From: Klebsiella phage fENko-Kae01
Sequence record: OR228459.1
DNA length: 64,000 bases
Direction: 5' to 3' (one strand)
Below are positions 47,009 to 63,160 of this stretch, piece after piece. The translations under genes and the position numbers were made by a program. Position 1 is the stretch's first letter, and the number at the start of each line of letters is the position of its first letter. A model generated the notes under the pieces. It did no database searches and had not been told where the DNA came from. It saw only the letters and a list, made by a program, of their open reading frames with translations.

Positions 47009-47066
47009 AAATCTAAAAGCGTATAATGATTTGCATAGGGGGAAACATCTTCCCCCCACTATTAAG
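47009..47066 (+). promoter_or_regulatory. promoter (TTGCAA-16-TATAAT) + conserved 5'-leader hairpin type A (GGGGGAAacatcTTCCCCC)
   Basis: Member of a 10-copy leader family. Confidence 0.6.
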
Positions 47067-47076
47067 AGAAACGATT

Positions 47077-47517
47077 ATGACTATCTACTATCTGACTTAT
47101 AAAACCGCCGACAATGTAACTGATGCTAATGTGACCGCAAACACGGTACAGGAAGCAATGGAAGTACTGAAAGCGGAACTACCTGATATTCAGATCGTTT
47201 GTGTAGTTGATACCGAAACGAATCTTAAAACTATTATTGACCACTATGATTATTTCCGTGGGCGTAAGTTACAGGACTGGTATCATATCGAAATAGAAAC
47301 ACGTGAACTACCAGAAGAACAACAGCACTTTGAGCAGGGTACTAGCATTTGGGTTACTACCGATAAACGCATATATTTCTGTTCACGCATACACGTTAAC
47401 AAGCGTGTTAAAATTGGGGCAGATTCATATAGTGGACTGTTTACAAATAGTAACCTACTAAATGACAAGTACATAAAAGTTTATGAGCGTTTTGGAACTG
47501 ATATTTACGCTTCATAA
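47077..47517 (+). CDS. hypothetical protein (146 aa)
   Basis: Track ORF 47026..47517 trimmed to ATG 47077, which follows an AAGAGAAA RBS. The upstream part of the track ORF is the leader element. Confidence 0.55.
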   Translation: MTIYYLTYKTADNVTDANVTANTVQEAMEVLKAELPDIQIVCVVDTETNLKTIIDHYDYFRGRKLQDWYHIEIETRELPEEQQHFEQGTSIWVTTDKRIYFCSRIHVNKRVKIGADSYSGLFTNSNLLNDKYIKVYERFGTDIYAS

Positions 47518-47525
47518 TATCACAA

Positions 47526-47560
47526 AGGGGAAGCAATTGCTTCCCTGTTTATTTGTACAG
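47526..47560 (+). terminator. rho-independent terminator (GGGAAGCaattGCTTCCC + tgtttattt)
   Basis: Perfect palindromic stem with a T-rich tail. A near-copy lies at 55214. Confidence 0.6.
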
Positions 47561-47817
47561 TACTATAATCTATAGATACAATACCGCACCCCGTGGGCTA
47601 ATGTGTTTTCATGGGTATTATTATGCCAGTACTACAAACATTTGTCAATCATTATTTTCAATTAATTTAAACGCACTGTAACACTGTATAAGGCGTTTTG
47701 TTATTAAGGTAAGCAAACGTATTGAGTACTATCTAAAAGGCCGTTGTGGGCTTGCTGGTGGCGTTGTGTTGTAGTATTGAAATATAAGGAAAATATAAAA
47801 AAGGCTGTCAATGATTA

Positions 47818-47940
47818 AAAAAGTACTTGACGGATTGATTTAGTACTGTCATAATGTATCACATAGAGCGGCGGGATGGATAAACATTCCTAAGTAGACA
47901 GCCAGTAAGTCATACGAAAGACTGGTGCCGAACTGAAAGA
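47818..47940 (+). ncRNA. orphan promoter + ~80-nt structured ORF-free transcript (candidate sRNA)
   Basis: AAAAAGTACTTGACGG-18-TCATAAT at 47818-47858. Downstream region has the hairpin CCAGTaagtcatacgaaagaCTGG and no ORF, then runs into the next promoter at 47949. Confidence 0.3.
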
Positions 47941-48046
47941 AAGATTGAAAAGAGTTTTAAAAAGTACTTGACAAGCTGGTGGGAAATTGAGATAATGACC
48001 CCGTAGACAGCAAACAACCTAATTAAACTTTAAGAGGAAATATACA

Positions 48047-48634
48047 ATGACTACTACTACTGAAAATGCACGTGTTACCCTGAAATCTGCACTGGAAGCT
48101 GGCGACGTTAAAACCCTTGCTGTTATCCTTGCGAAAGTTGGTCATGATAAAGACGGCGTATCTAAATTGGGCTTGACTTTCTCACTGGCGGTTAAGGAAG
48201 CGAAGGAAGTACTTAAAGAGCAAGCCAAAGCAGCAGAAGAAGCTGCACGTCAGGCAGCAGAACGCCGCGAAGCTAAAAAGGCTGCACGTCAAGCCGAAGA
48301 AGAAAAGCGTCAGGCTGAGATCAAGGCAGAAAAAGAAAATATGCTCAAGTTCCTCATGGATACGGTTAACGGTATGGGCTTAGACCTTGAGGCGGCAGAA
48401 GCGGCAGCAGAAGCGGCAATTGTTAAAAAGTACGGCGATGTTAACAAAGTACCTAAGTATACTTTTAACCGTGTAGCGGTGATTGTAGACGGTAAAGAAT
48501 ACAACATGCCAACTTCTGGGAACATGGTAGAAGTACTTAAAAATGCACTTGAAGCAAGCGGTAAATCGCGTAAAGAGTTTATCATCGAACACGCGAAAGA
48601 CAAGGCAGAAGCGGAAGCGGCATTCGCTGAATAA
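48047..48634 (+). CDS. H-NS-like DNA-binding protein (195 aa)
   Basis: C-terminus KYTFNRVAVIVDGKEYNMPTSGNMVEVLKNALEASGKSRKEFIIEH aligns to the E. coli H-NS C-terminal domain ([40 protein letters not shown]). N-terminal part is coiled-coil with an Ala/Glu/Lys-rich linker. Strong promoter and RBS. Confidence 0.5.
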   Translation: MTTTTENARVTLKSALEAGDVKTLAVILAKVGHDKDGVSKLGLTFSLAVKEAKEVLKEQAKAAEEAARQAAERREAKKAARQAEEEKRQAEIKAEKENMLKFLMDTVNGMGLDLEAAEAAAEAAIVKKYGDVNKVPKYTFNRVAVIVDGKEYNMPTSGNMVEVLKNALEASGKSRKEFIIEHAKDKAEAEAAFAE

Positions 48635-48651
48635 TAACAGTACTAAACTAT

Positions 48652-48680
48652 AGGCGGCCTAAGTGGTCGCCTTTTTTTAA
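48652..48680 (+). terminator. rho-independent terminator
   Basis: GGCGGCCtaagtgGTCGCC + ttttttt. Confidence 0.55.
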
Positions 48681-48692
48681 TTGGGGGATTAT

Positions 48693-48953
48693 ATGGCTGT
48701 AGGATTCGCGAAAGACGGGGCAGAACAAGACGAGATTTTAGCGGTCATAAACGCCGCTGTAAGCCACGCAAGGAATCAGATAGGGGATAGTACTATTACA
48801 AGTAGAACGCACTGCCTAGACTGTTCTAGGACTATTCCTGAGCGTAGACGGGAAGTAGTAAAGGGTGTTAAGTACTGCGTAGAGTGTCAGGCTGATCATG
48901 ATAGTATATTTAAAAGAGATCCGCGTAATTGTTGGCACAGATCTATGAGATAG
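48693..48953 (+). CDS. TraR/DksA-family C4 zinc-finger protein (86 aa)
   Basis: CLDCSRTIPERRREVVKGVKYCVECQ, i.e. CxxC-17-CxxC with the IPE.RR motif typical of TraR/DksA. Track ORF 48681 trimmed to ATG 48693, which follows a GGGGGA RBS. Confidence 0.6.
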   Translation: MAVGFAKDGAEQDEILAVINAAVSHARNQIGDSTITSRTHCLDCSRTIPERRREVVKGVKYCVECQADHDSIFKRDPRNCWHRSMR

Positions 48954-48957
48954 TACT

Positions 48958-49013
48958 TGACATACTTTCTGATTAAAGTATAATGATTTGCATAGAGGGA
49001 AACATCTTCCTTC
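48958..49013 (+). promoter_or_regulatory. promoter + leader hairpin type A (GAGGGAAacatcTTCCTTC)
   Basis: Leader family copy. Confidence 0.5.
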
Positions 49014-49034
49014 ACTAATTAAGGAAATAGAATC

Positions 49035-49307
49035 ATGCGTACACCAATGACCCGCGAAGAAATACACACAGTACTGACAACTAACATTCAGGACTGGAAG
49101 AAATACGCAGATATTAACGAAGCTCAAGACTTGAACAATGAGCTAGATGGTGAAGATCTGGACGTAATTTGTTCCCCTGAGTTTTATGATGATATTCATT
49201 CCGATGATGATGTTTGGAATGTACTGGAAAAGCATTTCCTCGATACTGATTTAAGTATCTACTCGCGTGATACTTTTATTTTAATTCACAACATTTATAA
49301 CAAATAA
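49035..49307 (+). CDS. hypothetical acidic small protein (90 aa)
   Basis: TAAGGAAA RBS. Confidence 0.55.
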   Translation: MRTPMTREEIHTVLTTNIQDWKKYADINEAQDLNNELDGEDLDVICSPEFYDDIHSDDDVWNVLEKHFLDTDLSIYSRDTFILIHNIYNK

Positions 49308-49310
49308 TTG

Positions 49311-49367
49311 TTGACTTACTTATATAGTACTGTATAATGGTTTGCATAGGGGGAAACATCTTCCCCC
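49311..49367 (+). promoter_or_regulatory. promoter (TTGACT-16-TATAAT) + leader hairpin type A
   Basis: Leader family copy. Confidence 0.6.
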
Positions 49368-49386
49368 ATCAATTAAGGAAAAGAAA

Positions 49387-49596
49387 ATGACTCGATACAC
49401 TGTAGAAGTACGTACTACTAAAAACATTGCTACTGATGTGATTCGTTATTATAAGATGGTTTGTGGTGTTGCTCGCCGTATTAGTAAAGCGGATTATGAC
49501 AAGCTGGATCGCGAAGCTGATGGTATGGATTGTTTTTATACAGTAAACACAAAAACGCATACAAAGCAATTTAAAACATTGTCTTATTACATGTAA
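49387..49596 (+). CDS. hypothetical small protein (69 aa)
   Basis: Track ORF 49342..49596 trimmed to ATG 49387, which follows a TAAGGAAAAG RBS. Confidence 0.55.
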   Translation: MTRYTVEVRTTKNIATDVIRYYKMVCGVARRISKADYDKLDREADGMDCFYTVNTKTHTKQFKTLSYYM

Positions 49597-49757
49597 AAAG
49601 TTTTACTCCAGTACTTGACAATAGATGCGAGTACTGGCATAATAACTTTATTGAAACGAAATACTATTAAGGAAATATCATGGCTAATCTCATTGTTCGA
49701 TTGTATGAAGATTGTTTCTACTTTTAGTATTGTGGGAAACCTATATCCGTTAAAGAG

Positions 49758-50069
49758 ATGATCGCATCGGGCTATATGTTATCTAAGCATGATCACACTG
49801 GATTCATGGCTGAAATGGTTGCGGCTAGTTATAAGTTTGGTGAAGAATGGGAAGCACAATATTTTCCGGCTGTCAATGCAATGATTAAGCGGTTGGCAGA
49901 ACACACTGAGTTTATGGAATTTTGGACTGTTTTAAAAATGGTTGACGTGAATCAGAATGGGGAAACGTGTCAGCCATACGCACATTTTGACGCTGGGGAA
50001 GATATTAGCACAATTTGGAAATGGTTGGAAGATAAATTTACAACAATTAAAATTGCAGATTACTTGTAA
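49758..50069 (+). CDS. hypothetical protein (103 aa); possible longer form interrupted by in-frame TAG
   Basis: ORF with an AAAGAG RBS. An in-frame ATG at 49680 with a perfect TAAGGAAA RBS is separated from it by a TAG at 49725-49727. Confidence 0.45.
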   Translation: MIASGYMLSKHDHTGFMAEMVAASYKFGEEWEAQYFPAVNAMIKRLAEHTEFMEFWTVLKMVDVNQNGETCQPYAHFDAGEDISTIWKWLEDKFTTIKIADYL

Positions 50070-50075
50070 AAGTAC

Positions 50076-50132
50076 TTGCATTACTATCTGAAAAGCGTAT
50101 AATGGTTTGCATAGGGGGAAACATCTTCCCCC
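50076..50132 (+). promoter_or_regulatory. promoter (TTGCAT-16-TATAAT) + leader hairpin type A
   Basis: Leader family copy. Confidence 0.6.
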
Positions 50133-50153
50133 ACTAACTAAGAGAAGAATATC

Positions 50154-50534
50154 ATGGCTAATCAAATCACTCCAGCACAGACCTTCAATAAATTCAGTAC
50201 TGAAATCGTATTGAAAGAGTATGTGCCAGATTATGGTTGGACTGATGCATGTGTATGCACTGATGTAGCAGATGCAAAGCAACGCATTAAAGATTATCGT
50301 GCGGAGGGTTTACAGGTTAAAACTGCCCGTCGCCGTGTACTTAACAAAGATGCTTTCTTATGTCAAGCTCTTTTAAACTTCTGCCGTGACTACTATCGCC
50401 GTACTGGTGGATTATGGCCTAATGAGGTTGAAGTACTGAAATCTAACGGTAAAGTAAAATTTACCTTGACTTTAAAAGAAATTGAGGAAGTACTTGGTGA
50501 TGATTGTTTTTTAGTAACTTCACAGCCAGCATAA
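50154..50534 (+). CDS. hypothetical protein (126 aa)
   Basis: AAGAGAAG RBS. Confidence 0.55.
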   Translation: MANQITPAQTFNKFSTEIVLKEYVPDYGWTDACVCTDVADAKQRIKDYRAEGLQVKTARRRVLNKDAFLCQALLNFCRDYYRRTGGLWPNEVEVLKSNGKVKFTLTLKEIEEVLGDDCFLVTSQPA

Positions 50535-50543
50535 AAAAGTACT

Positions 50544-50576
50544 TGACACATAACGGGGATATGATACAATATCCCC
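50544..50576 (+). promoter_or_regulatory. promoter with -10-centred palindrome (GGGGATATgatacaATATCCCC)
   Basis: TTGACA, then an inverted repeat enclosing the -10. Confidence 0.5.
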
Positions 50577-50603
50577 ATATTGAAAAGTAATGGAAGTACT
50601 GAA

Positions 50604-50795
50604 ATGAATTATCAAAAGGTTAGCAAGCGAGTAGTTGAACTCTCTAAGAAAGCACGTAAAGAGTATACCTTAGAACGTTCAATTAACAACTATCATTTAA
50701 AGCAAGGTGATAAGTTTATTGTTATTGACGAACCTTTGGAAATCGTGTATATTGTAGTTAATGCGATGATTCGTGATAAAACGAGGATTAAGTAA
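50604..50795 (+). CDS. hypothetical small protein (63 aa)
   Basis: Track ORF 50580 (TTG start) trimmed to ATG 50604. Confidence 0.45.
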   Translation: MNYQKVSKRVVELSKKARKEYTLERSINNYHLKQGDKFIVIDEPLEIVYIVVNAMIRDKTRIK

Positions 50796-51050
50796 ATGCG
50801 TACATTAGACCAACTTATTGACCCTAATACGTCAGCACGTCGATCAATGGTTACTATCGGCGGTAATGGTAAACAACACTGGAGTGGTTACATTTGCTTT
50901 ATTGTTGGTGGAAAAATGTATGAGCGGGTAGTATATCACAAAGAGATTAATTATATACTATTCCGTAAAGAAGTCATAGCAGTCGATCCTACCGCCCTAA
51001 AACCGATTGCAGGGGCATGGAACAAAGAATCGCTGTACCTTACAGCTTAA
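50796..51050 (+). CDS. hypothetical small protein (84 aa)
   Basis: Start coupled to the upstream stop (TAAATG). AGGAT RBS. Confidence 0.5.
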   Translation: MRTLDQLIDPNTSARRSMVTIGGNGKQHWSGYICFIVGGKMYERVVYHKEINYILFRKEVIAVDPTALKPIAGAWNKESLYLTA

Positions 51051-51099
51051 CCAATAAAAGGCCGCTACGTGCGGCCTATCGCGTTCTAGAGGGTATATT

Positions 51100-51288
51100 A
51101 TGAATACTGTACAAGTACTAGATGAGATTGAAAAAATTGTTGACAGTACTAACAAACGTGATATACTGTTATCAAGAAATAAGGCTAACCAGTACGAAAA
51201 GAATTGCGTACAATCTGCACTAGGGGGTAACTTTGAATCGCTACACTCAACCATACTTCAAGGGAATAACAACCGCCCACCAGCGTAA
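51100..51288 (+). CDS. hypothetical small protein (62 aa)
   Basis: AGAGGG RBS. Preceded by the terminator hairpin GGCCGCtacgtGCGGCC. Confidence 0.5.
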   Translation: MNTVQVLDEIEKIVDSTNKRDILLSRNKANQYEKNCVQSALGGNFESLHSTILQGNNNRPPA

Positions 51289-51485
51289 AAAGAAACTACA
51301 CATAGTACAGAAACGAAAGCGTAAAGTACTTAAACTTAAACCAACATATAGTTGGGGATTGTCGTGGGATGAAATCAATCACGGACTATCATGGAATCAA
51401 TTATATGTTATTGGCTCAAGTGTTGGACGCTTTCATTTTAGTACTATATCACGACAAGAAACACGTGTAAACCCATATAAAAGTA

Positions 51486-51700
51486 CTTGACATATATCCG
51501 GCTTAGTGAGATAATACTTACAAGCCGGAGAAACGGCGTGACCCATAGGGTGCGAAGAAGTAATCAGTACTTGAGAATGATAATCATTTACAACACTAGA
51601 CAGATTTATGCACCCGATGGGTTAGATTGTTTTCATGCATATATAATATCAAAGTACTGTTATAGTGTCAAGCATTTTTATTTGATAATTATTTTAAAAA
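51486..51700 (+). ncRNA. orphan promoter (TTGACA...GATAAT inside the CCGGCTT/AAGCCGG palindrome) + ORF-free structured transcript (candidate sRNA)
   Basis: No protein-like ORF downstream; the track ORF 51487..51732 is low-complexity. Contains an inverted pair of the ACCCATAGGGTGC element flanking GAGAATGATAATCATTTAC (Fur-box-like, 16/19). Confidence 0.3.
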
Positions 51701-51764
51701 AAGTCTTGCATTACTTTCTGAATAACGTATAATACTTACATCAACCACTGAGAGGAAAGAAACA

Positions 51765-52136
51765 ATGTCTATTAAGCGTATTGTATTTGGTCGCGGTGCA
51801 AGTGAAGAAGTAGTACCTGTTGAACTGATCGCGATGTTAAATGAAATGATTCGCCGTGGTGATATTAATTTTAGTCCTGATGTAATGCCTTATGCGATTT
51901 CGTATGAGGTGCGTAAAAGTCCTAAGTACTGGAAGATTGACCGTGTAGAATTGGACAAAGAAACCGGAGAGATTCGCGAGTTTGGGCGTAGTTCTGTTGG
52001 TGCTGTAGATTTTGAAGGGAACGTGTTTAAATCTGCCAGCTATAAAGCCGTTGCTAAGGGTATCCGTGGAAACATCTTTGTTAACAATGGTTTTAGTGCA
52101 ATTACTGGTGACGGATATATTCGTTATTTAAATTAA
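51765..52136 (+). CDS. hypothetical protein (123 aa)
   Basis: GAGAGGAAAG RBS. Promoter tcttgcat...cgtataat upstream. Confidence 0.55.
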   Translation: MSIKRIVFGRGASEEVVPVELIAMLNEMIRRGDINFSPDVMPYAISYEVRKSPKYWKIDRVELDKETGEIREFGRSSVGAVDFEGNVFKSASYKAVAKGIRGNIFVNNGFSAITGDGYIRYLN

Positions 52137-52143
52137 AAAGTAC

Positions 52144-52205
52144 TTGCAAAGTAATCTGATTAGCGTATAATGTTTTACATAGAGAGGGGAAATAGTTTCC
52201 CCTCC
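52144..52205 (+). promoter_or_regulatory. promoter (TTGCAA...TATAAT) + leader hairpin type B (GAGGGGaaatagttTCCCCTC)
   Basis: Leader family copy with a covarying stem. Confidence 0.6.
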
Positions 52206-52223
52206 ATATTAAGGAAAAGTATC

Positions 52224-52460
52224 ATGGCACAGAAAATCACTCGCGATAACGTAGAATTTTACATTGATATCCTGAATACTAAACTTGAAAAGATGGGTGC
52301 TCCACTACGTTACAAAATGATCCCTGTTGCTGGTGGTTATGAGTTGCAAAAGTACAAGGGTGATATTCAGGTTGATTATTGTGTATCTGGTCAAAAACTC
52401 CGTGAAGTTTATGAGATTGTACGTTTTGCAGCTAACATGATTTCGGATAACGTGAAGTAA
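52224..52460 (+). CDS. hypothetical small protein (78 aa)
   Basis: Track ORF 52170 trimmed to ATG 52224, which follows a TAAGGAAAAG RBS. Confidence 0.55.
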   Translation: MAQKITRDNVEFYIDILNTKLEKMGAPLRYKMIPVAGGYELQKYKGDIQVDYCVSGQKLREVYEIVRFAANMISDNVK

Positions 52461-52540
52461 TTATTATCAAAAAGTACTATTGACAGAAACATGATAGTAC
52501 TTTATAATACTTACATCAATTAAGCAAAGAGGAAAACAAA

Positions 52541-52846
52541 ATGCAAATGTCTAACCTGTATGTAGCTCACATCACTATGCGTCATGGTGAATATGAAACA
52601 CTGGTTAAACGTCTGATTATTGCTAAGAGTTTAGCAGAGGCAGAATTATACGCCTATGAAGAAGGGATGGCAACATTTGACGGTAGCGAATTAGAAGATA
52701 AATCCAGCTATCAAGAAGCGGATCAACCTCATACGTGGTATTTCTCAGGCGGGGATTGGTGCGTTACTCTTAATGCAGTTACATGGATTGAGGATCGCGA
52801 AACAGCTAAAGTAATTGCTAAATCTGATTTACTGTCTTATCTGTAA
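52541..52846 (+). CDS. hypothetical protein (101 aa)
   Basis: Promoter cassette plus AAGAGGAAAA RBS. Confidence 0.55.
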   Translation: MQMSNLYVAHITMRHGEYETLVKRLIIAKSLAEAELYAYEEGMATFDGSELEDKSSYQEADQPHTWYFSGGDWCVTLNAVTWIEDRETAKVIAKSDLLSYL

Positions 52847-52853
52847 AAGTACT

Positions 52854-52888
52854 TGACAACCTTTCGGGGGTAGGATATACTATCCCCA
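52854..52888 (+). promoter_or_regulatory. promoter with -10-centred palindrome (GGGGTAGGATATactATCCCC)
   Basis: TTGACA, then an inverted repeat enclosing the -10. Confidence 0.5.
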
Positions 52889-52913
52889 TCAATTAAGCAA
52901 AGAGAGAAACAAA

Positions 52914-53324: not shown

Positions 53325-53330
53325 AGAAAA

Positions 53331-53670: not shown

Positions 53671-53727
53671 TTGCATTACATATTCAGTACTGTATAATGG
53701 TTTGCATAGGGAAAAACAACTTCCCCC
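53671..53727 (+). promoter_or_regulatory. promoter (TTGCAT-16-TATAAT) + leader hairpin type A
   Basis: Leader family copy. Confidence 0.6.
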
Positions 53728-53747
53728 ACTAATTAAGGAAATGAATT

Positions 53748-54212
53748 ATGAATAGCATCCAGTTCGTAGAAGCCATTGAAAAAGAATTCCTGTCAGTATT
53801 TCCTAACGGTTTCTTTATTGCCCGACCTTTACCGTTGGGCGGTGATGTAGGGATCACTATGGGACTGACTCGCGAACAGGCCGATTGTCCTCATAATATC
53901 CGTGATAATGATCGTATGCGTATGACCTTCGCGATCCACGGTATGAAGTTTGGGGATAGTGAAGATTATAACGACAAGTTAATTATGGAACCGTACTATT
54001 CAGCGATTAGCACGATTCCACGCAAGCCATACTACGCTATGGGACACGATAAGATCAAGACACGCAAAACCACTAACACGCCGGAAAAATTGATTGTAAC
54101 GCTTTCTAAGTACATTAAAACCGCAGGGCAGCAAGTAAAAGAGCTAGCAGAAGTAAACGAGATTTATCAGCAGGAACAGATTAAACCTCAGTACTTAGAA
54201 ATTAACGTGTAA
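53748..54212 (+). CDS. hypothetical protein (154 aa)
   Basis: TAAGGAAATG RBS. Confidence 0.6.
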   Translation: MNSIQFVEAIEKEFLSVFPNGFFIARPLPLGGDVGITMGLTREQADCPHNIRDNDRMRMTFAIHGMKFGDSEDYNDKLIMEPYYSAISTIPRKPYYAMGHDKIKTRKTTNTPEKLIVTLSKYIKTAGQQVKELAEVNEIYQQEQIKPQYLEINV

Positions 54213-54825: not shown

Positions 54826-54892
54826 TTGCATTACTTCTGAAATAACGTATAATGGTTTGCATAGGGGGAAACAACTTCCCCCACTAATTAAG
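54826..54892 (+). promoter_or_regulatory. promoter (TTGCAT-16-TATAAT) + leader hairpin type A
   Basis: Leader family copy. Confidence 0.6.
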
Positions 54893-54902
54893 GAAATATA
54901 AT

Positions 54903-55211
54903 ATGATTGCTAACGTTCAAGCCAACTTTGAAAACCAATTCATCAATGAAATATTGCGACTGGATGATGGGGTCGCACGTATTAACTACGGTTTTAACTC
55001 CGGTGGTTATGAAAGTAACGTGTACTTTTATACTGCTGACGGTGGTACACTGGCAATCGATACGGTAATTGTTGAAATACAAAAAGTAAACTTCAATGAT
55101 GAAAATGATCCACAGTGGTATATCATCGGCTATGACGTGAACTATGAAGATCAAGATCTTTATGACTCACATACAGGCCAGCAAATCATTCCCGCTTATG
55201 GGGATGAATAA
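54903..55211 (+). CDS. hypothetical acidic protein (102 aa)
   Basis: TAAGGAAATA RBS. Confidence 0.55.
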   Translation: MIANVQANFENQFINEILRLDDGVARINYGFNSGGYESNVYFYTADGGTLAIDTVIVEIQKVNFNDENDPQWYIIGYDVNYEDQDLYDSHTGQQIIPAYGDE

Positions 55212-56609: not shown

Positions 56610-56683
56610 AATAATTAGTCAGTACTCTTGACATTATCATAGAGTACTGCTATAATTACTTTACTTAATCAGGAGAACATACG

Positions 56684-57001: not shown

Positions 57002-57212
57002 TATAATACTTTTATCAAATCAAGTGGAGTACTAAAAAGATGATTACACCTATTGCACCAATTCACAAGACAGTGTATAATACTTATAGTACTCCAAAGC
57101 AGCAACATATTATCGAGGAACTGAAAGAACAGAAAAAAGAAGTAAAAAGTACTGGTAACCGAATCGATATTAAAGTATAATACTTACATCAACCACAAAG
57201 AGGAATACAAAA

Positions 57213-57551
57213 ATGGCTATTACTTCTATCTTCTGCAACACCCGAAACGAAGCACGTCAGGCTAAAATCGATTTCAACGGTAAAATTGTTGACAATGGTT
57301 CTGATGCACCCAAGGGACAGCGTTGGGAAGTACAATACGAAGTAGCCCCCGTATCTGATGCCATCGCGGAACTTGCAGCAATCATGCAAGCGGAAGTACA
57401 AGACATGGCACTAGAAGAAGTGTCTCCACGTGAGATTATGGGTCTTCCACGTCCTGTAAGCAAGAATAAAAAAACCCGTGCTGTGATCATGAAAGATCGC
57501 AAAGGTAATTCAGTTACTGTACAGGTTCGTCGTCGCCGCATTACTGCCTAA
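57213..57551 (+). CDS. hypothetical basic-tailed protein (112 aa)
   Basis: AAGAGGAATA RBS downstream of the tataatacttacatcaacc cassette tail. Confidence 0.55.
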   Translation: MAITSIFCNTRNEARQAKIDFNGKIVDNGSDAPKGQRWEVQYEVAPVSDAIAELAAIMQAEVQDMALEEVSPREIMGLPRPVSKNKKTRAVIMKDRKGNSVTVQVRRRRITA

Positions 57552-57591
57552 CCGAAAGGGGGAGCAATCCCCCAAACTTTTAAGAGGATTT

Positions 57592-57843
57592 ATGAAGAAG
57601 CAAGTACAACTAATTAATGGTAATTTCATGCGATTGCATTATAAACCGCAAAAGAAAATCATTGAGAAAGCTACAAAGGTAGCAAATGATTTTGTTAGTG
57701 GGACAGTTCGCCCCCGTAAACTATCTAACGGATTGTTTCAAGTACTGGATATTAGCAGAACAGAACGTATCGTAATTGATAAGGAAAAGCAAATACATTT
57801 AATGAGTCACGAAAAGTACAATGATTTTGTGAATCAGCGTTGA
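57592..57843 (+). CDS. hypothetical small protein (83 aa)
   Basis: AAGAGGA RBS. Preceded by the hairpin GGGGGAGCAATCCCCC. Confidence 0.5.
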   Translation: MKKQVQLINGNFMRLHYKPQKKIIEKATKVANDFVSGTVRPRKLSNGLFQVLDISRTERIVIDKEKQIHLMSHEKYNDFVNQR

Positions 57844-57897
57844 CAGACTACCGACAACATAGTATAATACTTTCATCAACTAAACGATGGTTCTAAA

Positions 57898-58287
57898 ATG
57901 AAAAATATTGTTTCTGCTATCGCTATCGCTGTTATGTTTTCTTCAACTCCAGTTATGGCATACACTGTTAATCTGAATGAATTGACAGATTGGGGAAATC
58001 AAATGCGTGATCGCTTTGCAGTACCAGACCATATCCAGCCGCAGCAAAAACAAGGTAGTGAAATGTTATGCCGTGGGGTAATGACTAACGAGCAAACCGG
58101 ACAACAAATCCGCGAACAATTCAGTACTAGTGGTGAACGTTCGGTATCGGGTAATGATATCATCTATCATGATGAAGATGAAACCGGAAGCACTACATTG
58201 CAAATTAATGCAAAAACTGGTAAAGGCTTTATTACGATGATGGACACTGAAAAAGTTATCGTAACTGGTAATGTAGTTTGCAAATAA
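57898..58287 (+). CDS. secreted protein (129 aa)
   Basis: Signal peptide MKNIVSAIAIAVMFSSTPVMA. Confidence 0.55.
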   Translation: MKNIVSAIAIAVMFSSTPVMAYTVNLNELTDWGNQMRDRFAVPDHIQPQQKQGSEMLCRGVMTNEQTGQQIREQFSTSGERSVSGNDIIYHDEDETGSTTLQINAKTGKGFITMMDTEKVIVTGNVVCK

Positions 58288-58297
58288 AGTACTAAAA

Positions 58298-58335
58298 AGG
58301 GGTTGACTTCGGTCGGCCCTTTTGCTATTATATAT
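58298..58335 (+). promoter_or_regulatory. terminator-promoter module (GGGGTTGACttcgGTCGGCCC)
   Basis: Same family as 13061. Followed by the TAACCCACAGGGTG element. Confidence 0.55.
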
Positions 58336-58400
58336 CCCATAGAAACAAGTTAACCCACAGGGTGGCGTAGTCCGTCCAAAATTTATTAAAAGTATAATAT

Positions 58401-58655
58401 ATGGAAATATGGAAAACAATCACTGATTCCCCTAATTATGAAGTAAGTAATTTAGGAAATATACGAAAAATACGTGATAATAAAGGTATGGCACAAACTA
58501 ATAGTAAACTTTCAGATGATGATATTAAATTCATCCGAGCTAATTTTAAAAAATGTGATCCTGTATATGGTGGAATACCACTAGCAAAGCGATTTGGTGT
58601 ATATAAAAGTACTATATACAAAATTGTACAAGGACGTGCATGGAAGCATATATAA
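58401..58655 (+). CDS. orphan NUMOD4 + HTH protein, homing-endonuclease-associated DNA-binding module without nuclease domain (84 aa)
   Basis: MEIWKTITDSPNYEVSNLGNIRKI matches the NUMOD4 signature (WK.I...YEVSN.G.VR). C-terminus LAKRFGVYKSTIYKIVQGRAWKHI is the HTH typical of HNH homing-endonuclease C-termini. No SD sequence upstream. Confidence 0.5.
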   Translation: MEIWKTITDSPNYEVSNLGNIRKIRDNKGMAQTNSKLSDDDIKFIRANFKKCDPVYGGIPLAKRFGVYKSTIYKIVQGRAWKHI

Positions 58656-58692
58656 ATATATTCATAATACCATTTTATATAAGGAGTATATT

Positions 58693-59226
58693 ATGCCGGG
58701 TAAATTTCAAGATAAAAATGGTGGGTTAATTGCAGGACATAGTGATCGCTGGTCTGATGAAAACCGCCGTAAAAATAGTTTTAATGCTGGTGCTGGAAGT
58801 CGAGCTAGTCGAAATCAAGGACTAGGACAAAAAGGACTCGACAATACTAAAACAGATACCATTGTAGATACTTCTAGGATGAAACCAGAAGAAAAACTAA
58901 AGTACTTCCAATCTTTGGGATTACTTGGTCATCAAGAGAAAGGTTCTAAAGAGCCTCCAAAAGCAGCACCACAAAAACCAATGCCTACCGATAGTAAATC
59001 ACTTATTAGTACTTTACAAGATCAATGGAAAGATGCGTTTAAAGGCGATGTACGCCATTCTAAGCGACTTATTGCAGAACTTAAGGACGTTGCCCCAGCT
59101 AAGATTAAAAAAGCTCTACAAGCTGCTTACAGGGCCACACAAGAGGTTACCGCACGTGAAGACGACCCTCTAACAATCGTTGAATATATCAGTGATGCTA
59201 TTGTTCCATTTACATATGAAGATTGA
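58693..59226 (+). CDS. hypothetical disordered Lys/Gly-rich protein (177 aa)
   Basis: Track ORF 58594 trimmed to ATG 58693, which follows a TAAGGAG RBS. Confidence 0.55.
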   Translation: MPGKFQDKNGGLIAGHSDRWSDENRRKNSFNAGAGSRASRNQGLGQKGLDNTKTDTIVDTSRMKPEEKLKYFQSLGLLGHQEKGSKEPPKAAPQKPMPTDSKSLISTLQDQWKDAFKGDVRHSKRLIAELKDVAPAKIKKALQAAYRATQEVTAREDDPLTIVEYISDAIVPFTYED

Positions 59227-59231
59227 AATAA

Positions 59232-59268
59232 AAGGTTGACATGAGTCAGCCTTTTTTGCTATCATAGT
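59232..59268 (+). promoter_or_regulatory. terminator-promoter module (GGTTGACatgaGTCAGCC)
   Basis: Same family as 13061. Confidence 0.5.
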
Positions 59269-59292
59269 CCTACACCAATAGGAGATAGTAAC

Positions 59293-59556
59293 ATGAAATA
59301 CTTACTAATCATCGCCGCATTATTCAGTACTCAAGCAATGGCAACAGATATGGTTTGTAGTGCTGATGGTTTCCAAACTGTATTCAAGGTAGATGGCAAC
59401 ACGCTTATTGACACAAACGAACACGTAGTAGCTGAAGAAATCAGTACTGGTAAGTTTATGGCACAAGATCAGTTCGGTGAAGTAGTTTATACTATTCACG
59501 GAAATAAGATTGTAATGCAATTCAGTGGCGTTATCAAAGAGTACAATTGCAAATGA
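59293..59556 (+). CDS. secreted protein (87 aa)
   Basis: Signal peptide MKYLLIIAALFSTQAMA. TAGGAG RBS. Confidence 0.55.
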   Translation: MKYLLIIAALFSTQAMATDMVCSADGFQTVFKVDGNTLIDTNEHVVAEEISTGKFMAQDQFGEVVYTIHGNKIVMQFSGVIKEYNCK

Positions 59557-59747
59557 TTGTACAAGTAACACTAAAAGGATTGAAGCCCGGAGAAGATGAC
59601 TACGAAACACATGTAGCCACTATTTCCGGGTTGACAATGGATGAGATTGATGGTAATATACTGTCATACATCTACGAATGGCGTAATGCAAACGGGTATT
59701 ACAAAATGAAATATATTCATAAAGAGGTAATCTCATGCGATAACTAA
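59553..59747 (+). CDS. hypothetical small protein (64 aa)
   Basis: Track ORF 59547 (TTG start) trimmed to ATG 59553, which overlaps the upstream stop (ATGA). Confidence 0.5.
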   Translation: MIVQVTLKGLKPGEDDYETHVATISGLTMDEIDGNILSYIYEWRNANGYYKMKYIHKEVISCDN

Positions 59748-59763
59748 CACAGGAGATTACACA

Positions 59764-59979
59764 ATGCCAACTCATTCACTAGTACTTAATGGGATTCGAT
59801 TCAAAATGACTGAGGGTGCATTGCAAAGTACTAACACGCAATTAGTACTTGATAAACTCACAAAAGAACAATGTGATGGTATCCTTCGCGAAGCAAATCG
59901 CATTAAGTCAACTGTATCAAATCACCCGGTTAAGCGTCAATTACTTCAGGGGATCATTATGGGATGTTTGCGTAAATGA
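59764..59979 (+). CDS. hypothetical small protein (71 aa)
   Basis: CAGGAG RBS. Confidence 0.5.
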   Translation: MPTHSLVLNGIRFKMTEGALQSTNTQLVLDKLTKEQCDGILREANRIKSTVSNHPVKRQLLQGIIMGCLRK

Positions 59980-60128
59980 TTTATCAACAAATTATTGCAG
60001 TACTGAAAACACTTGACTACGGAAATGCAATCCGTTATGCTAGTGCTAACGCCTTTGAACTCGCTCAAATGTATGAGCAAGGTAGTACCATTGATGAGCT
60101 GGTGGAGGTTTGTCTCAGTCATAAATAA
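59976..60128 (+). CDS. small hypothetical protein (50 aa, not in ORF track)
   Basis: ATGA overlap with the upstream stop. Replaces the track ORF 60013..60255, which overlaps the next well-supported gene. Confidence 0.4.
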   Translation: MIYQQIIAVLKTLDYGNAIRYASANAFELAQMYEQGSTIDELVEVCLSHK

Positions 60129-60154
60129 TCTTGTAATTATTACAGGAGATCATT

Positions 60155-60427
60155 ATGACAGACTTAAACGCAATCAAGCAATGGAGTACTATCCCATTAA
60201 ACGAACTACCGCAACTACTAAAGCAACAAGGTTTTCAATTCGTACCACGTTTTAGTACTGAAGATCATCGTATCTTCGTATCTCAAGACGGACAATATTT
60301 GATTAATATTATCCGTAATACTGGAAAAGTATACAGTACTAAAAATCAGAAATCACCTTTGCATATTTTTGGTATTCGTAATGGTGAGATCCCAAAAGGT
60401 GCAGATAAAGCATTCAGAACTGAATAA
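60155..60427 (+). CDS. hypothetical protein (90 aa)
   Basis: ACAGGAG RBS. Confidence 0.55.
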   Translation: MTDLNAIKQWSTIPLNELPQLLKQQGFQFVPRFSTEDHRIFVSQDGQYLINIIRNTGKVYSTKNQKSPLHIFGIRNGEIPKGADKAFRTE

Positions 60428-60432
60428 TAAAA

Positions 60433-60470
60433 AAAGGGTTGACTTAGGTCGGCCCTTTTTGTTATTATAT
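60433..60470 (+). promoter_or_regulatory. terminator-promoter module (GGGTTGACttagGTCGGCCC)
   Basis: Same family as 13061. Confidence 0.55.
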
Positions 60471-60496
60471 ACTTATTGAAGCGAAGGAGATAGAAC

Positions 60497-61087
60497 ATGT
60501 ACGTCACTAAAGCAGCAAAGAAACACTTAAAAGAACTTGACAAGTTACCAACTAATAAACAAATGTTAAAGTACTGTCGAGAAAATTTAACACGTTTGGG
60601 TAAGGGATCAAGTCGTGAAGTTTTTGCATTATCTGATACATTAGTAATCAAGATCGCTTTAGGTGGTGTAGGTGTAAAACAGAATGAAAATGAGATTCGT
60701 ATCTGGAATCTAGTTAGTTATTCATTTACTGGATTTAAGAGATCATTCGCTAAAGTACTGGTAAATTCATGCCACTGGAAAGAATTCTATATCGTCATGG
60801 AGCGTTTAAATACACAAACCGTGTCGCGGTCAATCTTTAATACAAGTACTGTTAGAGCGTGGCGTATGGATCGTACCGCAATGCATCCAATTGCTAAACG
60901 TATATTCAAAGATGTACAAGCCACTGATGATAATGCTTTTACTAATAACATAGCAGATATAACTCCACGAAATATGGGAACATCAAAAACAGGTGTTGTC
61001 AAGATGTTGGATTATGGTTTTAGTACTCCTATATGGAATGGACTCGCTAACGGTACATTAAAGAATAGAGAATTACTTATAAAATAG
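60497..61087 (+). CDS. small protein-kinase-like protein (196 aa)
   Basis: Gly-loop-like LGKGSSREVF and VIKIA (VAIK-like Lys). Catalytic-loop-like NIADITPRNMG (D.KP.N). DFG-like VKMLDYGFS. GAAGGAG RBS. Confidence 0.45.
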   Translation: MYVTKAAKKHLKELDKLPTNKQMLKYCRENLTRLGKGSSREVFALSDTLVIKIALGGVGVKQNENEIRIWNLVSYSFTGFKRSFAKVLVNSCHWKEFYIVMERLNTQTVSRSIFNTSTVRAWRMDRTAMHPIAKRIFKDVQATDDNAFTNNIADITPRNMGTSKTGVVKMLDYGFSTPIWNGLANGTLKNRELLIK

Positions 61088-61090
61088 TGC

Positions 61091-61127
61091 TTGACTACTT
61101 TATGCTGGTGGGATATACTTATCCCAT
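61091..61127 (+). promoter_or_regulatory. promoter (TTGACT; Chi octamer in spacer) with -10-centred palindrome (GGGATATacttATCCC)
   Basis: ttgactactttatGCTGGTGGgatatacttatccc. Confidence 0.5.
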
Positions 61128-61149
61128 CAACAACAAAGAGGAATACAAA

Positions 61150-61395
61150 ATGTTTAAAGTACGTAAATGGTCTGACTCTAACTCCCGCCCATATGATGTT
61201 GTTTATGTAGATGATATTCGAAACAATATCCACTATCAACCCGGCGTAGAATTTAGTACGATTGAAGGTGCTTATAAACATAAAGAAGTACTAATCAAAA
61301 GTACTGATGAAGATAGTATAGAATTTATCCGTAATCATTGGCCCACTGATGGTGCCGCTGATGAGGATAATTCAGAAGAACCAAAAATAGATTAA
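61150..61395 (+). CDS. hypothetical acidic-tailed protein (81 aa)
   Basis: Track ORF 61087 trimmed to ATG 61150, which follows an AAAGAGGAATA RBS. Confidence 0.5.
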   Translation: MFKVRKWSDSNSRPYDVVYVDDIRNNIHYQPGVEFSTIEGAYKHKEVLIKSTDEDSIEFIRNHWPTDGAADEDNSEEPKID

Positions 61396-61399
61396 TAAA

Positions 61400-61436
61400 A
61401 AGAGGTTGACTTCGGTCAGCCTTTTTTGTATTATAT
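61400..61436 (+). promoter_or_regulatory. terminator-promoter module (GAGGTTGACttcgGTCAGCC)
   Basis: Same family as 13061. Followed by the CTAACCCACAGGGTGC element. Confidence 0.55.
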
Positions 61437-61545
61437 ATATCAAGAAAACAGCTAACCCACAGGGTGCATAAATCCGTCTTTCAAATGTATATTTTTTCAT
61501 CGAAGTACTAAAACGAATACGAAACAAATAAATTTCAAAAAGTAC

Positions 61546-61608
61546 TTGACCACTATTACCGATTGTCGTATAATGTTTTACATCGAGAGGGGAAATGGTT
61601 CTACTCTC
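61546..61608 (+). promoter_or_regulatory. promoter (TTGACC-17-TATAAT) + leader hairpin type B (GAGAGgggaaatggttctaCTCTC)
   Basis: Leader family copy with a covarying stem. Confidence 0.6.
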
Positions 61609-61627
61609 TAACTTAAGGAATTAAATC

Positions 61628-62149
61628 ATGATTACTACTCCAGTACGCGATATGTTTAACGTTAACCCCAACACTGGTATTGCTTATGGATACATCAACG
61701 CGAACAACGTAAACAGTGAAGTACTGAATGAAATTTTCTGCAATGGTATTGATGTAGCTCGACTTGAAGCAGATATTGACTTCGCCAAACGTTATGATTT
61801 CGTAGTACCTGATCAAAAGGAATCAGAAGATTATACTGCTTATCTTGAGCGTGTACAATCCGATATGCTTGACTTCCTTAACAATCTGGGCGATGATGTG
61901 ATGGAAGAAGTGGAAGCACATGATCGCGAATATGAAGAGTTTACAGGTCATGTACACGCCGCCACAGTAGATAAGACTACAGTACTTTATAACACTGATA
62001 ACAATACTATCTGTGTTATGGATGGCATCAATGTTGGTTTTTTCTATGCTTGCTCTCCATGCTGCCCGAATGCTGGTGATCTTGATAGTGCTGGTGGAAG
62101 TGTAGAAACTTACGATGTACCTGTAAGCTGGCGTGAACTGGATTACTAA
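61628..62149 (+). CDS. hypothetical acidic protein (173 aa)
   Basis: TTAAGGAA RBS. Confidence 0.6.
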   Translation: MITTPVRDMFNVNPNTGIAYGYINANNVNSEVLNEIFCNGIDVARLEADIDFAKRYDFVVPDQKESEDYTAYLERVQSDMLDFLNNLGDDVMEEVEAHDREYEEFTGHVHAATVDKTTVLYNTDNNTICVMDGINVGFFYACSPCCPNAGDLDSAGGSVETYDVPVSWRELDY

Positions 62150-62150
62150 T

Positions 62151-62184
62151 TGACAACAACAAAGGGATAGTATATACTATCCCT
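62151..62184 (+). promoter_or_regulatory. promoter with -10-centred palindrome (GGGATAGTATatACTATCCC)
   Basis: TTGACA, then an inverted repeat enclosing the -10. Confidence 0.5.
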
Positions 62185-62208
62185 AACTTAAGAAAAGAGG
62201 AAATCAAA

Positions 62209-62388
62209 ATGGTTCACGTTGATCTTGAAGTACTGAAAAAAGTATGGTACGACATTGGCTATAAAAATATTAGCTGGACGGATAACCAGTACATCGAGCT
62301 TAAGGCACTGGATAACTGGCAGCGTAATGAAGTACTGAAAGCACACAAAAAAGGTGTAGATGATCGCTTTAACTTTCCTGTACTTTAA
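62209..62388 (+). CDS. small hypothetical protein (59 aa, not in ORF track)
   Basis: AAGAGGAAATC RBS downstream of the 62151 promoter. Confidence 0.5.
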   Translation: MVHVDLEVLKKVWYDIGYKNISWTDNQYIELKALDNWQRNEVLKAHKKGVDDRFNFPVL

Positions 62389-62401
62389 TAGAAAAAAGTA
62401 C

Positions 62402-62464
62402 TTGCATAGTATTCTGATTACTGTATAATGTTTTTCATAGAGAGGGGAATGGTTCTTCTCTCTA
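62402..62464 (+). promoter_or_regulatory. promoter (TTGCAT-16-TATAAT) + leader hairpin type B (TAGAGAGgggaatggttcttCTCTCTA)
   Basis: Leader family copy with a covarying stem. Confidence 0.6.
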
Positions 62465-62480
62465 AATTAAGGAAAACATT

Positions 62481-62663
62481 ATGACTAACAAATATCGTAC
62501 TCAGTTCTTCATGGTTGATGGTGCTCGATTAACTGCTGCTGACGTACACGAGTACTACGGAGTGAGCATTGATGATCTTCTGGTGATGCATGAAGATGAA
62601 ACACAATTCTTCCATGCTCATGGGTACGAGGTTAAAGTAACACGCTGCCCAGCATACAATTAA
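62481..62663 (+). CDS. hypothetical small protein (60 aa)
   Basis: TAAGGAAAAC RBS. Confidence 0.55.
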   Translation: MTNKYRTQFFMVDGARLTAADVHEYYGVSIDDLLVMHEDETQFFHAHGYEVKVTRCPAYN

Positions 62664-62708
62664 TCATTTGGGGAGAGAGGTAATACTCTCCCATATTAAG
62701 GAACGTCC

Positions 62709-62975
62709 ATGAAACTGATTAACACACTAACGCGATTGTTTGGCACTGATAATGTTGACGATTGGAACGATGTTAACGATGAAGATAATGTGATTGATTA
62801 CATCGTTATCTACCACAACAATGATGGTGATAATGAGTGTGAGCCTGATTACTTCCTACGCCACTACGACAACGGATCATACCAGCTTAATGATCTCAGT
62901 GGCAACGTAATTCACACTGGTAATGATCTGGCAGTACTAAAGAAAGTACTAAAGAATTTACCAAAAAGTAATTGA
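62709..62975 (+). CDS. hypothetical acidic protein (88 aa)
   Basis: TAAGGAAC RBS. Preceded by the GGGAGAGaggtaatacTCTCCC palindrome. Confidence 0.55.
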   Translation: MKLINTLTRLFGTDNVDDWNDVNDEDNVIDYIVIYHNNDGDNECEPDYFLRHYDNGSYQLNDLSGNVIHTGNDLAVLKKVLKNLPKSN

Positions 62976-63100
62976 CTATAATCTGCTGGTGGAGTATTAT
63001 ATATCCATTGGCAGATAAGCCACTAACCCACGGGGTGCATAGATCCATCTATTGGATTTAAGTACTAAAACCTTTTAAAAAAAGAATAAAGAAAGTACTT
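62973..63100 (+). ncRNA. orphan promoter (TTGACT-17-TATTAT with Chi in spacer) + conserved leader element, no ORF (candidate sRNA)
   Basis: The transcript would begin with cattggcagataagccactaacccacggggtgcatagATCCAtctatTGGAT, near-identical to the 53375 copy. It runs into the next promoter at 63099. Confidence 0.3.
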
Positions 63101-63160
63101 GCATTACTATCTCAGTACTGTATAATGTTTTACATCGAGAGGGGGAAATGGTTCTCCCTC
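63099..63160 (+). promoter_or_regulatory. promoter (TTGCAT-16-TATAAT) + leader hairpin type B (GAGGGggaaatggttctCCCTC)
   Basis: Leader family copy with a covarying stem. Confidence 0.6.

Follow-up and report, generated by a model that had tools for sequence, protein, structure and literature searches.

We describe a family of ten repeated elements in the early region of Klebsiella phage fENko-Kae01. The analysis covers a 64,000-nucleotide (nt) stretch of sequence record OR228459.1, here called the window. Each element joins a sigma70-type promoter to a short leader that is predicted to fold into a hairpin, followed by a Shine-Dalgarno (SD) sequence and the ATG of a gene. By comparison with related phages we show here that selection on the sense-strand RNA keeps the hairpin paired. 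The ten elements are most likely portable early-gene expression cassettes of the PeSL type, a kind of promoter and stem-loop cassette known from T4-like phages. For the hairpin itself we favor, with moderate confidence, a role as a 5′-terminal stem-loop that would stabilize early mRNA.

Ten promoter and leader cassettes

A preliminary description of this DNA had assigned one arrangement of promoter, leader hairpin, ribosome-binding site and start codon to ten genes. All ten ATG coordinates (47077, 49035, 49387, 50154, 52224, 53748, 54903, 61628, 62481, and 63183) are correct, and the family is real and coupled to its promoter. The conserved -10/discriminator pattern TATAATGRTTTGCATAG, with up to three mismatches allowed, has 11 matches in the window versus 1.2 ± 0.96 in shuffles. 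Ten of these are the copies already noted; the eleventh, at 252, is unrelated. A covariance model (R1) built only from the ten window leaders (alignment A1) recovers exactly these copies in the 64-kb window, with E values from 3e-11 to 3e-5. Beyond these it matches the window at E 0.5-0.95 only, at one site at 62163 and in three echoes on the reverse strand. A search of 1-46000 with this model found no cassette copy, and all ten lie within 47-63 kb.

The sigma70 hexamers are near consensus in all ten copies. The -35 is TTGCAT, TTGCAA, TTGACA, TTGACT, or TTGACC, the spacer is 16-17 nt, and the -10 is TATAAT (TG-extended in four copies). Upstream of the -35 is an A-rich tract with AGTACT. An AT-rich discriminator and then a conserved CAT lie between the -10 and the hairpin. 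The leader is 41-49 nt long, and the tail between hairpin and ATG is AU-rich, unstructured, and 16-22 nt long, with UAAGGA or AAGAGA as the SD. There are two subfamilies, six A-type copies (GGGGGAA-ACAWC-TTCCCCC) and four B-type copies (GAGAGGGG(G)AA-loop-TTCYYCYCTC). The cassettes are listed below with their predicted starts, folding free energies (dG, kcal/mol), and fold z-scores (z).

Cassette 1: 47000..47079, plus strand; -35 TTGCAA 47000-47005, -10 47022-47027, predicted start A47035, ATG 47077; hairpin 47038-47056, GGGGGAA/TTCCCCC, dG -12.3, z -2.3
Cassette 2: 48957..49037, plus strand; -35 TTGACA 48957-48962, -10 48979-48984, predicted start A48992, ATG 49035; hairpin 48995-49013, GAGGGAA/TTCCTTC with one G·U, dG -8.0, z -1.3
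Cassette 3: 49311..49389, plus strand; -35 49311-49316, -10 49333-49338 (TG-extended), predicted start A49346, ATG 49387; hairpin 49349-49367, dG -12.8
Cassette 4: 50076..50156, plus strand; -35 50076-50081, -10 50098-50103, predicted start A50111, hairpin 50114-50132, ATG 50154; a synteny breakpoint with phage Munch at 50068, directly 5′ of the promoter
Cassette 5 (B-type): 52144..52226, plus strand; -35 52144-52149, -10 52166-52171, predicted start A52179, ATG 52224; hairpin 52184-52204, GAGGGGAAA/TTTCCCCTC, loop TAG, dG -14.0, z -2.5
Cassette 6: 53671..53750, plus strand; -35 53671-53676, -10 53693-53698, predicted start A53706, ATG 53748; decayed hairpin 53709-53725, GGGAA/TTCCC, two G-to-A changes relative to Munch, dG -5.4, z -0.08; a synteny breakpoint at 53663-53679
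Cassette 7: 54826..54905, plus strand; -35 54826-54831, -10 54848-54853, predicted start A54861, hairpin 54864-54882, ATG 54903; the top covariance-model score of the ten (54.2 bits)
Cassette 8 (B-type): 61546..61630, plus strand; -35 61546-61551, -10 61569-61574, predicted start A61582, ATG 61628; hairpin 61585-61608 with an internal G/A mismatch shared with copies L047:6475 and L125:23437
Cassette 9 (B-type): 62402..62483, plus strand; -35 62402-62407, -10 62424-62429, predicted start A62437, ATG 62481; hairpin 62438-62464, 12 pairs with two G·U, dG -14.2, z -3.35
Cassette 10 (B-type): 63099..63185, plus strand; -35 63099-63104, -10 63121-63126, predicted start A63134, ATG 63183; hairpin 63139-63160, GAGGGGGAA/TTCTCCCTC with one G·U, dG -16.9

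Predicted transcription start and hairpin fold

The A of a CAT is found at the 7th or 8th nt past the -10 in 21 of the 27 gene-proximal promoters in 44-64 kb. Because this is the usual distance of a start site, we infer that transcription begins at the A of the conserved CAT. RNAfold predicts one dominant hairpin in each of the ten copies, starting at +2 to +6. The hairpin would then be at the extreme 5′ end of the mRNA, as the preliminary description had it, provided that transcription does begin at the CAT. With this start, 1-5 nt are left unpaired at the 5′ end of the window copies (0 in the minimum-free-energy fold of copy 5).

The stems have 5-12 pairs and the loops 3-7 nt, with a G-rich 5′ arm and a C-rich 3′ arm; the GAAA..TT that had been read as the loop is mostly stem. 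Nine copies have dG values of -8 to -17 kcal/mol and z-scores of -1.0 to -3.4 (cassette 6 is taken up below). Nine of the ten leave the SD and AUG free of pairing. The leader of the gene at 63183 is the only one of the ten with predicted structure at the ribosome site, where a second small hairpin (63161-63185, UCC-AAAA-GGA) pairs the SD-like AAGGA. The same dominant hairpin is predicted for 78 unique promoter-plus-leader copies from the window and its relatives, with SD and AUG free and a dG of -9 to -17 kcal/mol.

Pairing is conserved among relatives

Stem differences among the ten copies had been taken as covariation and so as the mark of selection on structure. In the ten copies alone this is not significant. 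There are 4 compensatory cells versus 1.7 ± 1.1 in shuffles, a count that 25 of 500 shuffles reach, and a control structure slid by one column has an equal covariation score. The check with RNAalifold that had been proposed for the ten leaders gives a weak covariation term, only -0.47 kcal/mol. In the four B-type copies the 5′ arm GAGAGGGG(G)AA is mostly constant, and C/U variation in the 3′ arm changes G-C to G·U.

The signal is strong once relatives are added. A regular expression and the covariance model detect the cassette in Munch, 7t3, G17, EJP2, 121Q, Erwinia phage Hallingskeid, and two IMG/VR contigs. The window and nine loci from relatives (~280 kb) contain 87 model hits, 77 of them distinct when flanks are counted. 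Stems in this set include GGGGGAA/TTCCCCC, GGGGGAG/CTCCCCC, GCGGGAA/TTCCCGC, GGGGGTA/TATCCCC, GTGGGGAA/TTCCCCAC, GGGGAGAA/TTCTCCCC, and GGGAAGAG/CTCTTCCC. In the model alignment of the 77 copies, 92.3% of cells are paired and two-sided changes are found in all 7 of 7 pairs, versus 4.0 ± 0.9 in shuffles. Compensatory cells number 58 versus 21.4 ± 3.3 in shuffles; none of 500 shuffles reaches 58, and slid controls give 6-15.

The model alignment (A3) shifts B-type hairpins by one column, as the model loop has 5 nt and the B-type loop 3-4 nt, and this creates spurious A·C cells. It therefore understates pairing. For this reason mismatch types were taken from per-sequence ungapped best stems (75 distinct copies) and event counts from minimum spanning trees, which allow for shared ancestry and were built separately for each loop-length class from its distinct inner stems. 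Along the tree edges, both partners of one pair change 8 times, a one-sided change keeps the pair by way of G·U 10 times, and a change breaks pairing 4 times. With relatives included, the trees thus hold at least 8 compensatory steps.

Internal mismatches in the stems of the 75 copies are 24 G·T, 0 A·C, 0 C·A, and 8 others. Since the 5′ arm is purine-rich and the 3′ arm pyrimidine-rich, transitions should yield G·T and A·C equally often. The observed asymmetry fits selection on sense-strand RNA, not a palindrome read by a protein or a cruciform.

Orthologous genes in other genera keep the hairpin with a different stem, for example GAGGGGGAA/TTCTCCCTC versus GCGGGGGAA/TTCTCCCGC, and the hairpin is kept with its downstream gene in 13 of 16 orthologue comparisons. 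A promoter stands at a fixed distance from the hairpin in all 77 distinct copies and none is promoter-less (the regular expression scored 73 of the 77 promoters; the remaining four, with a truncated locus or variant hexamers, were judged by eye).

Genomic setting and distribution

The window corresponds to the early region, rich in ORFans, of a 121Q/RaK2-like jumbo phage. The nearest records in a megablast search with 47000-55000 are the Salmonella phages SE_PL, 7t3, PHA46, and Munch, at 96-98% identity and with genomes of 337-350 kb. At greater distance the search matches E. coli jumbo phages of the 121Q/PBECO4/G17 group (Asteriusvirus) and the RaK2-like phages of Klebsiella. The segment 45000-64000 is collinear with Munch 737-21295, the initial 21 kb of that record, and holds a run of small plus-strand genes, almost all annotated as hypothetical. 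RpoD-like early promoters with UP-like elements have been reported in related phages, concentrated where short hypothetical genes lie (PMC5259590). A search of the window for tRNA genes found none.

The ten downstream proteins belong to different PHROGs or to none; they are mutually unrelated and have no assigned function. What is repeated is therefore a regulatory cassette, not a duplicated gene.

A blastn search with one cassette matched 453 places in 65 phage records, with up to ~20 per genome in E. coli Asteriusvirus. The full cassette, with other compensated stems, is also present in the Vequintavirinae phage A7_1, the Stephanstirmvirinae phage FBKp34, and the Alcyoneusvirus K64-1. Phages from several taxa, with hosts in Salmonella, Escherichia, Erwinia, and Klebsiella, retain it. 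In the record of Klebsiella phage FBKp34 the homologous hairpin is annotated as a terminator. A host origin of the cassette was considered and rejected, with no match in 5,426 complete E. coli genomes. A loose IMG/VR scan with the AT-rich pattern TATAATGNTTTNCATNG gave mostly chance single matches; the useful ones were L011, L047, and L037. We did not find this leader hairpin described in the literature on Asteriusvirus, RaK2-like, rV5-like, and phi92-like phages. As far as we found, the cassette has not previously been described in the 121Q/RaK2-like and other lineages.

Sister promoter classes and exchange of gene modules

PeSL cassettes are found in the T4-like phages RB49/phi1, PST, and nt-1 (PMC2839356; Comeau et al. 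2014, PMC4122927). In RB49/phi1 an AT-rich tract precedes the sigma70 early promoter, and the cassette further comprises a stem-loop of G(n)-loop-C(n) form that contains G·T pairs, an SD, and a start codon (PMC2839356, Arbiol et al. 2010). Five subclasses are distinguished by the position of the stem-loop, including one downstream of the -10 (PMC2839356; PMC4122927).

The region studied here also has several promoter-plus-stem-loop classes, in which the hairpin spans the -35, spans the -10, or lies in the leader, together with other repeated promoter families that have no hairpin. The -35 class is a 66-nt family (D2) with ten copies, at 13044, 14349, 17921, 24115, 26533, 53316, 58282, 60418, 61385, and 62951. 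Its -35 TTGAC is part of a hairpin (GGGTTGAC-TTCG-GTCAGCCC) that has a UUCG tetraloop and a U·G wobble. A T-run then leads into a TATTAT -10 (for example AAAGGGTTGACTTCGGTCAGCCCTTTT then TATTAT), and we predict that the D2 copies are true terminator-promoter composites.

The -10 class has ~8 copies (18979-19014, 20285-20320, 50552-50587, 52863-52892, 55973-56008, 62160-62190, and others). An inverted repeat of 8-9 bp, for example GGGAGTAT-gttata-ATACTCCC, holds the -10 in its loop, and there are compensatory variants (GGGGATAT/ATATCCCC and GGGGATAG/CTATCCCC). By its layout this class corresponds to the PeSL subclass with the stem-loop overlapping the -10, and its own promoter would transcribe the 3′ arm only.

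The cassettes mark the places where gene content differs between close relatives. All seven offset changes relative to Munch and five relative to 7t3 fall at promoter/leader cassettes, and each insertion or deletion is a whole gene. The segment 49688-50067 is replaced in Munch, with breakpoints at 49687/50068, the right one at the start of a cassette promoter (class 1, the promoters of the leader-hairpin family). The breakpoint at 53663-53679 is on the -35 flank of another class-1 promoter, that of cassette 6. The mapped breakpoints are in the UP/-35 part or at the leader/ATG end of cassettes, not in the hairpin.

Known element types

A terminator scan of 45000-64000 found 24 sites, none of which is any of the ten hairpins. 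No T-tract follows any of the ten, and the sequences after them are ACTAATTAAG, CTAATCCAAA, and similar. The canonical intrinsic terminator was rejected for the ten hairpins on this ground. No boxA-like (CGCTCTT-like) sequence was found from -60 to +80 of each copy. A lambda-type nut site was rejected for want of boxA and because the loops (ACAWC, ATGG, TGG, TAG) vary in length. A scan of the whole window with Rfam gave 0 matches at the gathering threshold.

The preliminary description had offered a translational operator of the RegA/gp32 type as one possible role. This does not fit, as the hairpin ends 16-22 nt before the ATG and SD and AUG are free in nine of ten copies. The freely varying loop sequence and length and the varying stems also oppose it.

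Proposed role and alternatives

Its other suggestion, a 5′ stabilizer against RNase E, is our leading mechanism, which we hold at about even confidence. It is favored because the hairpin starts near the 5′ end, is bound to a promoter in 77 copies, lacks a T-tract, and leaves the ribosome site free. Host RNA polymerase would make monocistronic or nested early mRNAs, whose first ~25 nt would fold into the hairpin. This fold may hide the 5′ end from RppH and from the 5′-end sensor of RNase E, and the shielded mRNAs would live longer. A self-contained fold would also keep the leader from pairing with whichever open reading frame (ORF) stands behind it. As a by-product, the ~80-bp repeated cassettes could serve as homology patches for the shuffling of ORFan modules. 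RNase E cuts base-paired 5′-monophosphate ends far more slowly than accessible ones (PMC3997798; its reference list names the primary papers on 5′-terminal stem-loop stabilizers).

Several observations weigh against a stabilizer. Cassette 6 (start 53706) has a decayed hairpin (dG -5.4, z -0.08), although its Munch orthologue is intact. Three of the 16 orthologues in relatives have a leader without a hairpin, so the hairpin is dispensable for some genes. Several copies in relatives have 5-7 unpaired 5′ nt, and work by Emory et al. from 1992 reportedly found that ompA-type protection tolerates fewer than 5-7. No mapped transcription starts were found in the literature on Asteriusvirus, RaK2-like, rV5-like, and phi92-like phages, and the +1 used here is a prediction. 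The sister-class hairpins over the -10 or -35 would not be whole in their own transcripts. One common role for all classes would thus imply transcripts reading through from upstream (attenuation or 3′-end protection) or recombination. Finally, a tblastn search with the RNase E activator Srd of T4 against the window and six relatives' loci found nothing below E = 1; a wider search across phages returned mainly T4-like ones.

Two alternatives place the function of the hairpin in RNA, as the stabilizer does. The main rival is the role proposed by the PeSL authors, an attenuator or insulator. Here the hairpin would pause or terminate polymerase reading through from upstream or protect the 3′ end of the upstream mRNA, and so prevent a build-up of transcription across the series of tandem promoters. 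In RB49/phi1 the PeSL stem-loop lowered expression of a downstream lacZ as much as rrnB T1 did (PMC2839356). In our region the sister classes bear a similar hairpin over the -35 (with T-run and UUCG, predicted true terminators) or over the -10. No other terminator stands in the interval from the upstream stop codon to a class-1 promoter, and the FBKp34 annotators called the hairpin a terminator. We nevertheless judge this role unlikely for the leader hairpins, which have no T-tract and keep their position just past the start in 77 distinct copies, never without a promoter. The hairpin also follows the downstream gene in 13 of 16 comparisons while the upstream neighbor is kept in 1 of 16, a weak argument since the promoter travels with the hairpin. 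Recognition by a phage RNA-binding factor (a translational repressor, an antiterminator similar to N, or a nuclease or protector that acts selectively) that co-regulates a subset of early mRNAs is improbable. The hairpin is multi-copy on a defined subset of early promoters, most copies share the stem top GGAA/UUCC, and the regional terminator-promoter composites could be antiterminator targets. Known protein operators, however, conserve the loop. Here loops vary freely (ACAUC, AUAUC, AUGG, UAG, CAC, AAUCAC), stems vary with compensation, the hairpin is 16-22 nt from the AUG with the SD not occluded, and there is no boxA-like sequence or Rfam match. In a broader form of this idea, to which we give a slim chance, the hairpin would be a self tag on a subset of early transcripts, read by a phage factor (a processive antiterminator or a protector from phage-induced decay) and mobile among at least four lineages (121Q-, RaK2-, rV5-, and phi92-like). 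If true, the cassettes would form a trans-lineage post-transcriptional regulon rather than carry a passive stabilizer.

The RNA hairpin could also be incidental to a DNA element, either the operator of a dimeric repressor near +12 (as in lacO), a cruciform, or a recombination site. The center of the repeat at ~+12 to +15 is a classic roadblock position, cassettes coincide with recombination breakpoints, and the PeSL authors speculated on a DNA-binding recombination protein. We regard this as highly improbable, because the arms are not conserved and instead co-vary, the loop length ranges over 3-7 nt, the mismatch bias toward G·T is that expected of sense-strand RNA, and the breakpoints lie outside the hairpin. 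It is also quite improbable that the hairpin has no present function and hitch-hikes in a cassette spread by recombination or gene conversion. The decayed window copy and the hairpin-less orthologues would fit this, and the likeness of copies within a genome suggests concerted evolution. Against it are the at least 8 compensatory and 10 wobble-preserving steps versus 4 disruptive ones, the strong asymmetry between G·U and A·C, and the retention of the cassette in phages of four host genera (Salmonella, Escherichia, Erwinia, Klebsiella) and several taxa.

Other features of the window

The palindrome AGTACT is the most over-represented hexamer, with 248 copies in the window versus 17.6 ± 4.3 in dinucleotide shuffles (~11 times the expected number by our hexamer count). 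Both coding and non-coding sequence carry it; long ORFs hold 84 of the sites, which fall in all three frames, and its density is higher in the early region. In class-1 promoters it is directly 5′ of the -35 and often also directly 5′ of the -10. It is enriched 13-23 times in every relative examined (L121-L126, L011, L047, L037), including RaK2 and an Erwinia phage. A literature search found no account of this excess. Many palindromic hexamers are absent from the whole window, among them AAGCTT, ACGCGT, AGCGCT, AGGCCT, CAGCTG, CCATGG, CCCGGG, and CCGCGG. These absences are consistent with restriction-site avoidance and stand in contrast to the AGTACT excess.

A 13-nt motif, AACCCAYRGGGTG, which could form a mini-hairpin (ACCC-nnn-GGGT), is present 9 times in the window versus 0.14 expected. 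The sites are 45264, 51540, 53390, 58352, 61454, and 63025 on the plus strand and 47587, 51611, and 55280 on the minus strand. Each copy lies in an ORF-free gap, ~15-20 nt past the start of a sigma70-type promoter; those at 51540(+) and 51611(-) converge and overlap. By this arrangement the AACCCAYRGGGTG family looks like short non-coding RNAs; the loci have no Rfam or tRNA match. A 100-nt repeat (47525-47624 and 55218-55317, 79% identical) also lies in ORF-free gaps. It has a bidirectional terminator-like hairpin (GGGGAAGCAATTGCTTCCC) and then a minus-strand promoter with AACCCAC(R)GGGTG.

On the minus strand, 30317-43938 holds an array of twelve paralogous genes in tandem, each ~1.2 kb long. 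A conserved block of 56 nt is repeated along the array at ~1.2-kb spacing, with some of the intervals irregular (699-2364). The syntenic Hallingskeid genes are annotated as regulator of chromosome condensation (RCC1-like).

Comparison with known systems

The cassettes open no new category of mechanism; the element belongs with PeSL-type cassettes and 5′ stabilizer hairpins. They extend the PeSL idea, that cassettes drive and shuffle ORFan genes, from T4-like to 121Q/RaK2-like jumbo phages and, by cassette sequence identity, to rV5-like and phi92-like phages too. The 77 distinct co-varying 5′ hairpins in ~280 kb are a large natural set for the study of 5′-terminal structure and mRNA fate in infection. 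The cassette may also be of use as a ready-made part for enterobacteria that combines a strong promoter, an insulating 5′ hairpin, and a ribosome-binding site.

Two regulatory systems of phage early mRNAs resemble the cassettes in part. As in lambda nut and HK022 put, there is a promoter-proximal GC-rich RNA hairpin in phage early transcripts and terminators are present in the region. The cassettes differ from nut in having no boxA, no conserved GNRA-like pentaloop, and a variable loop length, and from put in having a single hairpin rather than a two-hairpin fold. They are also on about ten separate monocistronic units, whereas nut and put are present once per operon. T4 RegA and gp32 likewise act on a set of phage early mRNAs at the 5′ leader. 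Their operators lie on or next to the ribosome-binding site or AUG and are sequence-specific, whereas the hairpin here is 16-22 nt away and variable.

The leaders of ompA, papA, and T7 phi10 have 5′ stem-loops that protect the transcript against RppH and the RNase E 5′ sensor and prolong mRNA life; such a hairpin leaves ~0-4 unpaired nt at the primary 5′ end. The cassettes share with them a short stable hairpin, a strong promoter, and a free ribosome-binding site, and their hairpin would lie a few nt from the predicted 5′ end. Structure rather than sequence is kept, with compensatory changes and variable loops. Those leaders are single-gene elements with measured effects on half-life, whereas the present hairpins are known from sequence, occur in 10 to ~20 copies per genome, and have 5-7 unpaired nt in some relatives' copies.

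The likeness to PeSL extends over the whole cassette. There is a sigma70-like promoter with an AT-rich tract upstream of the -35, an adjacent G(n)-loop-C(n) stem-loop in which G·T is tolerated (24 in 75 distinct copies), and an SD and start codon at the cassette 3′ end. The cassettes are multi-copy in an ORFan-rich plastic region, with several positional subclasses in one genome, and they bound the indels and replacements between close relatives. The differences are in lineage and in the leader class. No T4-like phage is among the blastn matches of the cassette sequence, and the lineages here are 121Q/RaK2-like jumbo phages together with Vequintavirinae, Stephanstirmvirinae, and Alcyoneusvirus. 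The leader-class stem-loop would be wholly within the transcript (+2 to +28), with constant spacing from the start and no T-tract. This makes the terminator role of PeSL doubtful for the leader-hairpin class.

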